A stretch of 64,000 bases of DNA from Raillietiella orientalis (Eukaryota): assembly GCA_036172245.1 (NCBI GenBank), contig JAYWIR010000042.1:868001-932000 (forward strand), in the 5' to 3' direction. The notes beneath the pieces are model-generated. The model worked only from the letters and a program-made list of their open reading frames with translations. It did no database searches and was not told where the DNA came from. The position numbers and the translations under genes were made by a program. Within the stretch, counting starts at the first letter, position 1; every line of letters begins with the position of its first letter. Positions 43,994 to 52,101 of the stretch are shown one piece after another.

Positions 43994-46180
43994 CTGAGCT
44001 TCCTTGCCTGTTTCCAGGGAACACTTCCAGAGGAGCTCCTGGTGAAAAACTCTCAGTTTACCATCACAGCGGAAGAGAGCAACCCCAAATCAATTTTATT
44101 TCCTCCATCCCCCGACCACAAGAAAACAAGCTGTGAAAGGACCAGTACCTTCGAACGCTGTGCTCGGCGGTGGACCTCCACAAACTCCTCCCGCAGGTGG
44201 CGGTTCTCCTCCTCCAGCTCGCTCCACTGCCGCGCCTTCTCCGGCCACGCCTCCAAAGCACAGCCGCCATCCTCGGAGGCGCATCGCCTCACCTGCCTCC
44301 AATGCGCCGCCGGCTTCTGAAATCAGCGGGACGGCAGCTGCAGCCCTTTGTCGCCCCTCCCACCCAGAGAGCACGCAGCAGCGGGAGGTCACCGAGAGCC
44401 ACACGAGGGAGCAGCCCGCGGTACCCATCCCGAACGCTGCCCGTTCCCCGCCCTCTTCGTTCACCAGTGCAGTGCAGCGAGGGCGACCCCAGAGCCGGCG
44501 CGATCCGGGGAAGGACCACGGACCCTGGGAAACACGAGGGCACCTTGCGGACGACTCGACACTTGCTCCCCCTTCCGGTGCCCTTCGCGGGAATCTCGCG
44601 ACGCACGCGTGCGCCCTATCGTGGACAAGCGAGAGGGGAGCAGCAGGAATTCCTCGTCGGGAAAGACCAACTGCTGCTTTGAGAGCAGGAATTGCCCGAA
44701 AGAGAAGAAGAGGTGTTTCTTGTTCTCCAGCCCGCTCTCAGAGGTGGAAGGGACGCCCGCTCTCTTCGAGCAGCAGCGCGCGCACGGGCCAGGCCACAAT
44801 CCCTCGTCCCATCGGCGAACGTGGCGGCGCCGAGGTCCTCTGCCGCGGGAGAAGGCCATTTCCCAGGACGCGTCCCGCGACCCACCCAAACAACGGAAAC
44901 AGCATCTCCCCGTCGGAGCATTCCTGCGAAAGAGGAAAGAAGGAGCCGGGCGCATCCTTCGAGGACGGAGCGGCGGTGGCGAAAGAGGGCGTGCCGCCTG
45001 GCAGACTCCGGCTCCCGGACATACCTTCCGGGCGGGAACGGGGGAAGGAGGGATGTCCAGCGGCGATTCCTGAGGTTCCAGGGGCTCGGACAGAGGAGGA
45101 TCCAGGGGAAGGATCAGGGGAGACGCCTCGGGTTGAAGGGAGAGAGCCTGAGGCAATTCCCTGAGCTGCAGCTCCCTGGTGAGGGCGGTGACCCGCTCCT
45201 CCGCCTTCCTCCAGTGTTCGCAGGACATCAGGAATTTCTCCCACAAAAAGTCGTACCGCAGCTGCAGTTCCTCCTCCTCGGATGCCAGCTCGGAGGGCGG
45301 CGCTCGCTCGTCGTCTTCCTCGACAACGGGATGCGCTCCAGAGGGTTCCTGCGGCCGGCGCTGCCTCCCCTCCTCCGCGCTCGTCCAGCTGTTGGAGTCC
45401 AGCGCGCCCACGACGGGTGCTGCCGAGCCGGCGTCCCCGCAGGGCGCCTCGCACTCGTCGTACTCCTCGAGGACGGCAGGCGCCACCGCCTCTTCCTGCA
45501 ACAGACGCTTCTGGTCGGCTTCTTCTCTCGCCGAGCGCCAGCGCCCCGCGTCCTTCCCGGCACGCCCGCGATGCGCTCGAGTCGAAAGGATCCCTTGGCG
45601 CTTTCGCGGTCCTCGGCTCCGCAGCTTCCATCTTCAGGAGGCGCGGGAGACGAGAACCACTCTTCTAAAGCGGGCGTCACCGCCCCTGCTCGCCGAGCGG
45701 CCAGCGGGGCACCCGCCGGCTGCTATCTCGGAGCTTCGAACCAAAGCGGCAGCTACGTAGGACGACCCTCCGTGGGCCGGTGGTCCCTTGCTGCCCAGGA
45801 GTGGCGGAGCAACCCAACCACGCCTCATTCCTTCCCCCTTTGGGACCCTTTGTTGTTCGGAGCGCCCCTTGGCCTACTGCGCAACCGAAGAGCGTCTGCT
45901 CAGGTAGGTCGAACGCGTCCTCCCGGAGCCAGCACCGCTGCCTGCCCGCACCAACTCGCGCGTCCCGAGAGAATGCTTCTCCCGCGCTAGGGACCCTCGT
46001 CATCACCTTCTCCCGCCTTTGGGACCTCAGTTTCACCAGCAGGACCAGGACGCCCAGTGCCGCCAGGACGAGCATCGCGATGCAACTGCTGCAGGCGTGG
46101 CTGTGCTGTCGTAGCCACCACGCGGTCATTCCTTTCACCAGCGCCGTTCCCTGCTCGGCGGAGCGTCGCAAGAGGTCCAT
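43994..46180 (-). CDS. Spliced orphan gene, copy 1 (TM + acidic/Pro-rich + coiled coil); 3' end not defined
   Basis: Predicted exons 46180-46007, 45495-45025, 44316-44149 and 44038-43994 (174/471/168/45 nt). All junctions are GT-AG, phase 0 and open, and lengths equal those in copy 2. The exon 2 acceptor and possible extra exons are uncertain. Confidence 0.55.
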
Positions 46181-46396
46181 CGTCTCTCCTCCTGCTGTTG
46201 TCCAGCGGAGCGGGACTCCCCTCTCGCTCTTCCGCTCTTCCCTGAGCGCGGATGGCAAACAATGCTCCGTCGCTAGGAGACCGCCCTTCTTCGCGCCTTG
46301 TTCGGTCCTTGCCGTCCCCTCCCGCCTCCCCGCCGCGAACTGGCGAGCTGTCCTCTCCCTCACGGACCACCTCTCCACCCATCGCCGTCGAAGACG
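44199..46396. repeat. Left arm of ~2.2 kb inverted repeat (module B)
   Basis: Reverse complement of 49724-51914; six-frame ORFs mirror each other (e.g. 44461-45501(-) vs 50611-51969(+)). Confidence 0.97.
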
Positions 46397-46430
46397 CGCA
46401 GCAACCCGCGGCGGTGGTTGGGCTGTGTTC

Positions 46431-49345: not shown

Positions 49346-49723
49346 GGAAAGGCGCTTGCGCAAAAGAGTGCAGCCACAGACAAGACGCCTGTGGCACTTA
49401 TGCAGCGGGGGGTCGCAGGGAAAGGGCCATCGGCGGAATTGACTGACAGGTGAGGGACCTCCTCGCATGCGATTTGACGCCGGATAGGCGAGGGGCGTGA
49501 GAAGTGGACGAAACGCCTCTTCATTGCGCCCATGATCGCCCGCTTTCCCTCCGCAGACTCTCCGTTGGGCGCGACGCGGAGACGCGACTGCCACGAGACA
49601 GGATGGGAAACGCGAAAGCGTGGACAGTGGGCTTGTAAGGAAGTCTGCCTGGGAGAGAGACGTGAGACGAATGACGGAGCCTGCGATTCTGCGAACCGAC
49701 ATTCGGGAGACGAGACCACTACA

Positions 49724-51914
49724 CGTCTTCGGCGGCGGTGGGTGGAGAGGAGGTCCGTGAGGGAGCGGGCAGCTCGCCGGGGAGGCGGAGGGGACGGCAA
49801 GGGCCGAAAAAGGCGCGAAGAAGGGCGGTCTCCTAGCGACGGAGCATTGTTTGCCATCCGCGCTCAGGAAAGAGCGGAAGAGAGAGAGGGGAGTCCCGCT
49901 CCGGTGGACAACAGCAGGAGGAGAGACGATGGACCTCTTGCGACGCTCCGCCGAGCAGGGAACGGCGCTGGTGAAAGGAATGACCGCGTGGTGGCTACGA
50001 CAGCACAGCCACGCCTGCAGCAGCTGCATCGCGATGCTCGTCCTCGCGGCGCTGGGCGTCCTGGTCCTGCTGGTGAAACTGAGGTCCCAAAGGCGGGAGA
50101 AGGTGATGACGAGGGTACCTCACGCGGGAGAAGCATTCTCTCGGGACGCGCCTGTTGGTGCGTGCAGGCAGCGGTGCTGGCTCCGGGAGGACGCCTTCGA
50201 CCTACCTGAGCAGACGCTCTTCGGTTGCGCAGTAGGCCAAGGGGCACTCCGAACAACAAAGGGTCGCAAAGGGGGAAGGAATGAGGCGTGATTGGGTCGC
50301 TCCGCCACGCCTGAGCAGCAAGGGACCACCGGCCCACGGAGGGTCGTACCACGTAGCTGCCGCTTTCGTTCGAGGCTCCGAGATAGCAGCCGGCGGGTGC
50401 CCCGCTGGCCGCTCGGCGAGCAGGGGCGGTGACGCCCGCTTTAGAAGAGTGGCACTCGTCTCCCGCGCCTCCTGAGGATGGAAACTGCGGAGCCGAGGAC
50501 CGCGAAAGCGCCAAGGGATCCTTTCGACTCGAGCGCATCGCGGGCGTGCCGGGAAGGACGCGGGGCGCTGGCGCTCCGCGAGAGAAGAAGAAGCCGACCG
50601 GAAGCGTCTGTTGCAGGAAGAGGCGGTGGCCCCTGCCGTCCTCGAGGAGTACGACGAGTGCGAGGCGCCCTGCGGGGACGCCGGCTCGGCAGCATCCGTC
50701 GTGGGCGCGCTGGACTCCAACAGCTGGACGAGCGCGAAGGAGGGGAGGCAGCGCCGGCCGCAGGAACCCTCTGGAGCGCATCCCGTTGTCGAGGAAGACG
50801 ACGAGCGAGCGCCGCCCTCCGAGCTGGCATCCGAGGAGGAGGAACTGCAGCTGCGGTACGACTTTTTGTGGGAGAAATTCCTGATGTCCTGCGAACACTG
50901 GAGGAAGGCGGAGGAGCGGGTCACCGCCCTCACCAGGGAGCTGCAGCTCAGGGAATTGCCTCAGGCTCTCTCCCTTCAACCCGAGGAGTCTCCCCTGATC
51001 CTTCCCCTGGATCCTCCTCTGTCCGAGCCCCTGGAACCTCAGGAATCGCCGCTGGACATCCCTCCTTCCCCCGTTCCCGCCCGGAAGGTATGTCCGGGAG
51101 CCGGAGTCTGCCAGGCGGCACGCCCTCTTTCGCCACCGCCGCTCCGTCCTCGAAGGACGCGCCCAGCTCCTTCTTTCCTCTTTCGCAGGAATGCTCCGAC
51201 GGGGCGATGCTGTTTCCGTTGTTCGGGTGGGTCGCGGGACGCGTCCTGGGAAATGGCCTTCTCCCGCGGCAGAGGACCTCGGCGCTGCCACGTTCGCCGA
51301 TGGGACGAGGGATTGTGGCCTGGCCCGTGCGCGCGCTGCTGCTCGAAGAGAGCGGGCGTCCCTTCCACCTCTGAGAGCGGGCTGGAGAACAAGAAACACC
51401 TCTTCTTCTCTTTCGGGCAATTCCTGCTCTCAAAGCAGCAGTTGGTCTTTCCCGACGGGGAATTCCTGCTGCTCCCCTCTCGCTCGTCCACGATAGGGCG
51501 CGCGCGTGCGTCGCGAGATTCCCGCGAAGGGCACCGGAAGGGGGGCGCAAGTGTCGAGTCGTCCGCAAGGTGCCCTCGTGTTTCCCAGGGTCCGTGGTCC
51601 CTCCCCGGATCGCGCCGGCTCTGGGGCCACCCTCGCTGCACTGCACTGGTGAACGAAGAGGGCGGGGAACGGGCAGCGTTCGGGATGGGTACCGCGGGCT
51701 GCTCCCTCGTGTGGCTTTCGGTGACCTCCCGCTGCTGCGTGCTCTCTGGGTGGGAGGGGTGGCAAAGGGCTACAGCTGCCGTCCCGCTGATTTCAGAAGC
51801 CGGCGGCGCATTGGAGGCAGGTGAGGCGATGCGCCTCCGAGGATGGCGGCTGTGCTTCGGAGGCGTGGCCGGAGAAGGCGCGGCAGTGGAGAGAGCTGGA
51901 GGAGGAGAACCGCC
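49724..51914. repeat. Right arm of ~2.2 kb inverted repeat (module B')
   Basis: Reverse complement of 44199-46396 with scattered substitutions and small indels. Confidence 0.97.
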
Positions 51915-52101
51915 GCTTGCGGGCGAAGTGCATCGAGGCGCACCTGCAGACCAAGCGTTCCAAGGTTAGGGGGTCTCTTCTTTTTCGAACCAATTGGGCG
52001 GGGTTTGGGGAATTCGGAAGGAGCTACCAACCTGCTGAACTCGGGCCGCTCCTCAGGAGCTCCTCCAGCGATGGTCATTGGAAACAGGAAGGGAAGCTCA
52101 G
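49929..52101 (+). CDS. Spliced orphan gene, copy 2 (TM + acidic/Pro-rich + coiled coil); 3' end not defined
   Basis: Predicted exons: 49929-50102 (MDLL...IAMLVLAALGVLVLLVKLR...REK, AAG|GTGATG), 50617-51087 (AAG|GTATGT), 51797-51964 (ctgatttcag|, WRELEEENRRLR) and 52057-52101 (ELLQRWSLETGREAQ). All phase 0, 286 codons in total. Confidence 0.55.

Follow-up and report, generated by a model that had tools for sequence, protein, structure and literature searches.

Two head-to-head copies of a candidate taxonomically restricted membrane/coiled-coil gene in a partly homogenised inverted duplication of Raillietiella orientalis

Organization of the locus

The analysed DNA is a 64,000-nucleotide (nt) stretch of the Raillietiella orientalis genome (assembly GCA_036172245.1, contig JAYWIR010000042.1, positions 868,001 to 932,000 of the forward strand), referred to here as the window. 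Between about 43.5 and 52.6 kb of the window lie two long inverted arms around a spacer, and each side carries the same predicted four-exon gene for a membrane-anchored protein of coiled-coil type. What is observed directly is the inverted repeat, together with the exon model, the coding signature of the exons and two levels of divergence between the copies. The locus is best explained as an old inverted duplication of a real gene, the inner part of which was probably made uniform later by gene conversion.

A first-pass annotation of this DNA described near-identical inverted arms around a spacer of about 3.3 kb, and both the repeat search and blastn return that arrangement (Table 1). The arms differ at 58 mismatches in 2191 nt. 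The repeat search divides them into colinear inverted blocks of 959 nt (99%), 815 nt (96%), 426 nt (93%) and 60 nt (88%), which blastn unites into one alignment of 44147-46396 with 51966-49724 (96.1% identity, 2255 columns, 71 mismatches, 11 gap openings). Outward of the arms the homology continues, colinear but more diverged, in 43986-44041 against 52109-52054 (79%) and, beyond the outer arm ends, in 43539-43637 against 52583-52484 (82-83%); a pairwise search found no similarity between the two sides still farther outward, past ~43520 and ~52600. The old duplicated unit measures about 2.9 kb per side (~43520-46396 against 49724-52600), and only its inner 2.2 kb is nearly identical. The earlier picture of the locus was therefore right about the arms; it overlooked the older and longer duplication, the boundary of identity inside exon 3 and the presence in the spacer of more than unique sequence. 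In the 64-kb window, blastn and tblastn reveal no further copy of the gene.

Exons 1, 2 and 3 measure 174, 471 and 168 nt and are all in phase 0 on both sides, as had been proposed, with GT donors and AG acceptors at every junction of the three introns on both sides. Introns 1, 2 and 3 are 514/511, 709/708 and 92/110 nt long across the copies. The start codons, at 49929 in the right gene (plus strand) and 46180 in the left gene (minus strand), share the context GGAGGAGAGACGATGGAC, and the genes as modelled diverge, being transcribed outward from the spacer. Exons 1 to 3 and the splice sites of the proposed 286-amino-acid (aa) model hold; its 45-nt exon 4 (52057-52101), which lacks a stop codon, is probably incomplete. 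The peptides given for that short exon, ELLQRWSLETGREAQ and ELLWKCSLETGKEAQ, are encoded as quoted, in sequence that is 70-78% identical and rich in insertions and deletions (indels).

Table 1. Positions of the features of the locus in the window (Pro, proline; TM, transmembrane)
Feature	Positions	Strand	Remarks
Right arm, high-identity part	49724..51914	+	From 205 nt upstream of ATG to mid exon 3; GC 0.66-0.68
Left arm, high-identity part	44199..46396	-	Mirror of right arm; blastn and pairwise alignment
Spacer between the two gene 5' ends	46397..49723		3327 nt
Right exon 1	49929..50102	+	58 aa; predicted TM helix at about residues 33-51, then KLRSQRREK
Right exon 2	50617..51087	+	157 aa; predicted acidic disordered part, helix 67-112, Pro-rich part
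Right exon 3	51797..51964	+	56 aa, charged helix-type; identity step at ~51915
Right exon 4, extended reading	52057..52230	+	57 aa and stop 52228-52230; AATAAA 52226-52231
Left exon 1	46007..46180	-	Protein identical to right copy; 3 differences
Left exon 2	45025..45495	-	154/157 residues identical to right copy
Left exon 3	44149..44316	-	44/56 residues identical; differences concentrated in last 23 codons
Left exon 4, extended reading	43931..44038	-	35 aa and stop 43931-43933
Right outer diverged remainder of old duplication	52231..52600	+	Includes conserved island 52484-52583
Left outer diverged remainder of old duplication	43520..43930	-	Includes conserved island 43539-43637
A' (inverted copy of A)	46425..47102	-	678 nt, 28 nt from left arm inner end, upstream of left gene
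A (partner of A')	38285..38950	+	38290-38902 differ by 1 mismatch and one 12-nt indel
28S ribosomal RNA fragment (Rfam RF02543)	47669..48120	-	Model positions ~669-1124 of 3401; 179.7 + 113.5 bits

Coding signature of the predicted exons

Three-base periodicity, measured as a chi-square value (chi2) with 6 degrees of freedom that is independent of the choice of frame, reaches 30.8, 58.5 and 25.0 in exons 1, 2 and 3, against 2.4 and 7.4 in introns 1 and 2. The exons combine a GC content of 0.80-0.87 at third codon positions (GC3) with 0.47-0.55 at second positions, whereas the introns are flat at 0.63-0.71. Over 240-nt segments covering the whole window the statistic has a median of 5.9, a 95th percentile of 17.0 and a 99th percentile of 32.9. 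Thirty segments exceed 20, of which 16 fall on exons of the two copies, eight at 28.0-29.4 kb, four in the A/A' repeat described below and two elsewhere. The antisense frame of exon 2 displays the same GC pattern, as expected; it is the splice signals, and base use at codon positions 1 and 2 (G1 0.41, A2 0.32), that fix the strand of the gene.

Comparison of the two copies provides a second line of evidence. Exons 1 and 2 differ at 7 of 645 nt, compared with 49 of 1424 nt in the upstream segment and introns 1 and 2 (Fisher p=0.0018), and gap columns inside the arms number none in those exons and 15 in the upstream segment and introns 1 and 2. The exon-over-intron conservation between copies that the first-pass annotation expected of a gene is thus present. 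The three differences in exon 1 are all at third positions and synonymous, leaving its 58-residue peptide identical. So few differences fall in the homogenised part that selection cannot be demonstrated there.

The diverged 3' part of the gene offers larger counts. Substitutions were tested over a gap-free alignment of the final 69 nt of exon 3 and the initial 54 nt of exon 4; the part of exon 4 after a 3-nt indel was excluded. In the predicted frame the proportion of changed synonymous sites (pS) is 0.54 and that of non-synonymous sites (pN) is 0.18 (pN/pS 0.32, Fisher p=0.00023), whereas in the two remaining frames the ratios, 0.74 and 0.83, are not significant. The same stretch less one codon yields corrected synonymous and non-synonymous divergences (dS and dN) of ~0.87 and ~0.19, with a ratio (omega) of ~0.22. 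Because the synonymous excess is confined to the predicted frame, purifying selection must have acted on both copies in that frame over a long time. All six pairs of splice dinucleotides are kept, including those around intron 3, the body of which is only 70% identical with 40 gap columns. In its periodicity, its exon-versus-intron divergence and its frame-specific pN/pS, the sequence evolves as coding DNA.

Two levels of divergence between the copies

The identity of the two sides drops abruptly rather than gradually. Along 49724-51923 the copies show 1-10 mismatches per 200 nt, and the next 200 nt, 51924-52123, hold 53 mismatches and 45 gap columns. Introns within the arms are 95.5-97.7% identical, against the 70% of intron 3, and dS rises from ~0.02 in exons 1 to 3a to ~0.87 in exons 3b to 4a. 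Judged by dS of ~0.9 at the 3' ends, the inverted duplication is old. Selective constraint cannot keep introns so alike, and for this reason the inner 2.2 kb was most likely homogenised later by gene conversion between the copies. The simplest account places the end of the conversion tract inside exon 3, at ~51915 on the right and ~44198 on the left. The similarity of the arms would then be younger than the duplication itself, with conversion as its presumed cause.

Identity is uneven along the arms, at 99% over 959 nt and 93-96% elsewhere, and the longest identical tract measures 250 nt where 171 nt is expected (P ~0.05); together these values weakly suggest more than one conversion event. 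The GC content also changes at the boundary: the homogenised exons and introns have 0.66-0.68 (introns 1 and 2, 0.66-0.67), intron 3 has 0.45-0.57 and exon 4 has 0.53-0.57. This step would fit GC-biased conversion.

End of the coding sequence

The missing stop codon bears on the length of both products. Exon 4 most likely reads past the supposed donor at 52102 to the stop codons given in Table 1, and the product is probably 328 aa in the right copy and 306 aa in the left. This extended reading is favoured by three features: in the next three codons after 52101 (Val-Leu-Ala) the copies differ at third positions only, the next indel in exon 4 is 3 nt long, and the pattern 'P.LW.H' is retained in both copies. 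A 1-nt indel then separates the frames of the two tails, which differ after 'EAQVLA', and makes the right tail 22 aa longer and rich in arginine, cysteine and glycine. The AATAAA motif overlaps the right stop codon, and its left counterpart is GATAAA.

The extended exon 4 is more likely than a fifth exon. The only well-conserved sequence farther downstream consists of the two islands in the outer remainders (Table 1), which are 82-83% identical over 101 nt, lie 250-350 nt past the putative poly(A) signals and stand in surroundings that do not align. As a fifth coding exon the island is ruled out, the copies being frame-shifted against each other inside it. Rfam contains no match for either island, and the consensus fold has 33 pairs, 3 of them compensatory, from two sequences only, which are too few to judge it.

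Predicted protein product

The product, predicted from sequence, would begin with a 32-residue N-terminal segment followed by a transmembrane helix, a basic cluster, an acidic disordered region, a helix of about 46 residues, a proline-rich linker and a second helix encoded by exons 3 and 4. The hydrophobic stretch of exon 1 is followed directly by KLRSQRREK, and the best 19-residue Kyte-Doolittle window, from residue 33, has a mean of 2.81. Under the positive-inside rule, a basic cluster after a transmembrane helix marks the cytosolic side; from this cluster, we infer that the bulk of the protein is cytosolic (C-in).

AlphaFold2, run on exon 2 alone and with no alignment, gave a mean predicted local distance difference test (pLDDT) value of 61.6. 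One helix, residues 67-112, forms a block with pLDDT 90-95, and the remainder of the model is of low confidence, below ~60. A homodimer test on residues 60-120 scored 0.42, compared with 0.01 for the best of three controls. The mark used for homodimers is reached in microbes by 21 of 30 proteins solved as pairs of one chain and by 0 of 23 solved as single chains, and in eukaryotes by 17 of 29 pairs (animals, 7 of 16) and 0 of 30 single chains; among eukaryotic pairs without an older solved relative, only 1 of 7 reached it. The dimer runs agree in at least 97% of contacts, with a partner pLDDT of at least 76, and the modelled contacts are parallel, in register and spaced by 3-4 over residues 73-112. 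These models support, rather than demonstrate, a parallel homodimer in which the first helices pair in register. Since solved structures include many coiled coils, the pass may reflect mere likeness to them.

Exons 3 and 4 encode a second charged, helix-type segment, and this is the part that differs between the copies. The first-pass reading of a transmembrane helix, an acidic and proline-rich region and a coiled coil agrees with the hydropathy profile, the AlphaFold2 helix and the modelled dimer, all of which are predictions. In our working model, the product would be a dimeric coiled-coil protein anchored in the membrane and acting as a scaffold or tether. Within the proline-rich part, at 45072-45122 and at the mirror position in right exon 2, lies an imperfect 24-nt tandem repeat (2.1 copies, 78% matches), which suggests that the linker grew by internal duplication.

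Homology searches

The exons were searched one by one, the short ones with little power, in libraries lying outside the species' own genome and its close relatives. The four exon peptides gave nothing at or above the cut-off in Pfam; the best Pfam match of exon 3, to the TSC22 leucine-zipper family (PF01166), reached only E=0.11 and 13.1 bits against a cut-off of 30. Twenty long open reading frames (ORFs) of the arms, taken in all frames, returned FbpC-like_RD as their sole Pfam match (E=0.046, 13.9 bits, cut-off 27), and 74 other ORFs of at least 110 aa over the window matched no Pfam family. An exhaustive HMMER search with exon 2 against 1.84 billion representatives produced no match at E<=0.001. 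A word-indexed search among longer proteins listed 145 candidates for exon 1 and two for exon 3, none of which scored, and 218 pattern matches of exon 2 in metagenome contigs included no relative. The best match of exon 2 among Protein Data Bank (PDB) sequences had E=0.92. In the ESM Atlas the best clusters for exon 2 were unnamed hypothetical proteins (0.91), with a recognition value of 1500, below the usual level of known families, and provided no lead.

The earlier failure to recognise the protein family is thus repeated by the sequence and profile searches. The absence of a homologue in the libraries searched supports the reading of the gene as taxonomically restricted, or lineage-specific.

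The spacer, a second inverted repeat and the rest of the window

Two further elements occupy the spacer (Table 1). The first, A', is the inverted copy of A, a segment on the far side of the left gene. The pair is 96.8% identical over 678 nt and nearly perfect over ~610 nt, which makes it younger than the gene arms, or more recently converted. With the entire left gene inside it, the A/A' palindrome is interlocked with the one formed by the gene arms. Its periodicity is moderate (chi2 23-27), without a rise in GC3. A third copy of the gene downstream of A (38951 onward) is ruled out, as neither blastn nor tblastn finds one. A perfect 28-nt palindrome, its own reverse complement, lies at 39408-39435, ~460 nt past the end of A.

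The second element, in mid-spacer, is a fragment of about 450 nt of 28S ribosomal RNA, in which conserved cores and many paired positions are intact. A second scoring gave it 193.8 bits over model positions 669-1105. It lies far from any full ribosomal DNA (rDNA) unit within the window; capture as filler DNA and an origin as an rDNA orphon are both conceivable. Immediately 5' of it, a GC-rich stretch that extends to ~48340 may represent an expansion segment.

Outside the gene pair, the strongest coding-type periodicity lies at 28740-29720 on the plus strand (chi2 35-43, GC3 0.85). Its protein-like pieces are in different frames and would correspond either to a gene with short introns or to a frame-shifted pseudogene. 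A homologue search with the ORF 28740-29117 gave 554 candidates, none of which scored, and seven short ORFs around it returned nothing below E=0.1 in Pfam. Segments at 8805-9211, 16546-17081, 34021-34401, 53619-53691, 57674-58014 and 60521-60837 share dispersed repeats of 40-246 nt at 75-90% identity, which probably belong to one or two old interspersed element families. In six stretches of the window the observed/expected ratio of the dinucleotide CpG is 0.81-1.01, unlike a CpG-depleted vertebrate genome, and that of TpA is 0.22-0.53.

Interpretation and alternative explanations

We assign a probability of roughly 0.72 to the explanation that the locus holds a real, taxonomically restricted gene in two head-to-head inverted paralogues, produced by an old duplication whose inner 2.2 kb was homogenised by conversion. 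The first-pass annotation had likewise proposed a real lineage-specific gene duplicated into a palindrome-like locus, and the periodicity, the exon-versus-intron divergence and the frame-specific synonymous excess all support it. In this explanation an inverted duplication would first have spanned about 2.9 kb on each side. Its inner 2.2 kb, which begins 205 nt before the ATG and ends midway through exon 3, would then have been homogenised by intrachromosomal gene conversion from arm to arm. The outcome would be two proteins with an essentially identical membrane anchor and first helix and with diverged C-terminal helices and tails. That the genes are expressed is inferred from sequence.

Several observations weigh against this explanation. 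The evidence for a protein consists of intrinsic statistics from small counts, the libraries searched yielded no homologue, Pfam family or solved relative, and the pyrimidine tract at the intron 1 acceptor is poor. Conversion is read from the pattern of divergence, and a later partial duplication that overwrote one copy would look alike. The end of the coding sequence is uncertain because a 1-nt indel splits the tails and the extended exon 4 lacks periodicity (chi2 9.2), and the tail of one copy may be damaged. Exon 2 contains one synonymous and three non-synonymous differences (omega ~1), and the first 99 nt of exon 3 contain no synonymous and two non-synonymous ones.

These last points are the ones that would be expected if one or both copies were recently dead pseudogenes: exon 2 and the first part of exon 3 together show 1 synonymous and 5 non-synonymous differences, and the longer right tail, with its arginine-, cysteine- and glycine-rich composition and its lack of periodicity, is of a similar kind. 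Pseudogenes are nevertheless unlikely. The reading frames run unbroken for 306 and 328 codons and every splice site is kept, exons 1 and 2 contain no indel, exon 3 has no net frameshift (168 nt in both copies), and the 3' end shows long-term purifying selection.

The composition of the arms raises the question of whether there is a gene at all. The arms are ~66% GC with a TpA observed/expected ratio of 0.22-0.24, and TGA and TCA fall below dinucleotide expectation in them, even in intron 2 and in the spacer; low TpA and scarce TGA and TCA make long six-frame ORFs common in the GC-rich parts of the window. The arms carry 41 stop triplets on both strands, compared with 70 +/- 7 in dinucleotide-preserving shuffles, and are open in all six frames for 165-521 codons. 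In such stop-poor arms ORF length therefore proves nothing. A GC-rich, non-coding inverted repeat, such as the terminal inverted repeats of a foldback element or a structural palindrome, with a chance exon model, would account for these features and for the empty homology searches. It would not account for periodicity that is restricted to the three predicted exons and absent from introns of like composition, for a synonymous excess in the predicted frame only, for exons that are less diverged than introns and free of indels, or for splice dinucleotides that survive in a region of 70% identity. In its mobile-element form it also meets seven spacer ORFs of at least 110 aa with no Pfam domain, and so no transposase or similar, and finds no further copy in the 64-kb window. 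We consider the absence of a gene very unlikely.

It is highly improbable that the locus serves chiefly to produce hairpin or double-stranded RNA, with a transcript that crosses both arms and small RNAs from it that regulate the gene or its family. If a single RNA contained both 2.2-kb arms, their 96-99% identity would let them pair. Moreover, A copies the segment upstream of the left gene and points on the plus strand toward the 3' end of that gene, so that, given promoter activity, it could yield antisense RNA. The first-pass annotation had suggested read-through across both arms as a source of double-stranded RNA; this does not fit the divergent orientation. As the genes stand head to head and transcription runs outward from the spacer, their own read-through never reaches the other arm, and a fold-back RNA would call for an independent transcript of at least 7.7 kb that, on the plus strand, would cross the spacer. 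A role in RNA only would not need the coding constraints that are seen.

Equally doubtful is a more elaborate reading, in which the interlocked palindromes form a regulatory unit. Either A and A' would recombine and invert the left gene with respect to the right one, or antisense or fold-back RNA driven by A would control both copies. If A' holds the left promoter, A would fire on the plus strand into the 3' end of the left gene, toward the right arm. Partial conversion ending within exon 3 would then be kept for a shared anchor and dimer helix combined with distinct C-terminal helices.

An assembly artefact, from chimeric palindromic reads or two haplotypes joined in inverted orientation, is barely credible: long-read assemblies are known to contain erroneous inverted duplications and the almost perfect ~610 nt of A/A' have artefact-like identity, but a missed-adapter chimera gives identical arms without a spacer, whereas here the 71 mismatches and 11 gap openings flank 3.3 kb of unique spacer and the outward colinear homology of 70-83%, with dS ~0.9, goes far beyond allelic or read-error divergence.

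Comparison with known systems

The duplicated gene is set here beside two classes recognised by architecture or by RNA output. Membrane-anchored coiled-coil tether and scaffold proteins with one N-terminal anchor are an architectural class, not a sequence family. The predicted product resembles them in its single transmembrane helix, basic cluster, long helices with heptad-type contacts and disordered linkers, and differs in having no sequence or profile similarity to any family searched. Inverted-repeat loci for hairpin RNA, which give rise to endogenous small interfering RNA, have long near-identical inverted arms that pair if co-transcribed. Unlike those loci, the present arms carry constrained coding exons, the genes point outward and the loop would be 3.3 kb.

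Other counterparts are the gene palindromes of mammalian sex chromosomes, which are described as kept alike by arm-to-arm gene conversion (10.1101/800185, PMC8600007, PMC8327919, PMC8981503). Such palindromes are described there with arms of >10 kb that are >99% identical (10.1101/800185; >99% also in PMC8981503). The present locus shares with them the inverted arms, the unique spacer, one copy of a lineage-specific gene per arm, and an arm identity far above that implied by the age of the duplication. Its GC content, too, is raised in the homogenised part relative to the adjoining sequence, as in the X palindromes, for which GC-biased conversion is described. It differs in its arms of 2.2 kb at 96-97% identity overall (99% for only 959 nt), in a conversion boundary that would lie inside an exon, and in its host, which is not a mammal, as the CpG ratio also reflects. 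With 2.2 kb at 96.1% over 2255 columns, the arms lie below the palindrome definition of >10 kb and >99%.

Young inverted, head-to-head tandem duplicates in animal genomes have been termed 'duplogs', with gene conversion recognised as one of the forces acting on them (PMC3194840). The present pair resembles 'duplogs' in consisting of adjacent inverted paralogues. In contrast, its 3' ends are old (dS ~0.9), its 5' ends are young, and it concerns a gene without detectable relatives.

Significance

The gene looks real and previously undescribed, and the arrangement that holds it is of a known kind, a fairly ordinary gene duplication rather than a new system. The practical lesson for annotation is that in stop-poor DNA of 66% GC the length of an ORF is worthless, while periodicity and the substitutions between paralogues still tell exons from introns. 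The locus would provide a compact and delimited case of partial conversion, in which one half of a protein is kept identical while the other half diverges under purifying selection, and such mosaics are useful for measuring the length of conversion tracts and GC bias outside mammals. If the explanation is true, the gene set of the organism gains two versions of a lineage-restricted membrane protein that had escaped annotation.

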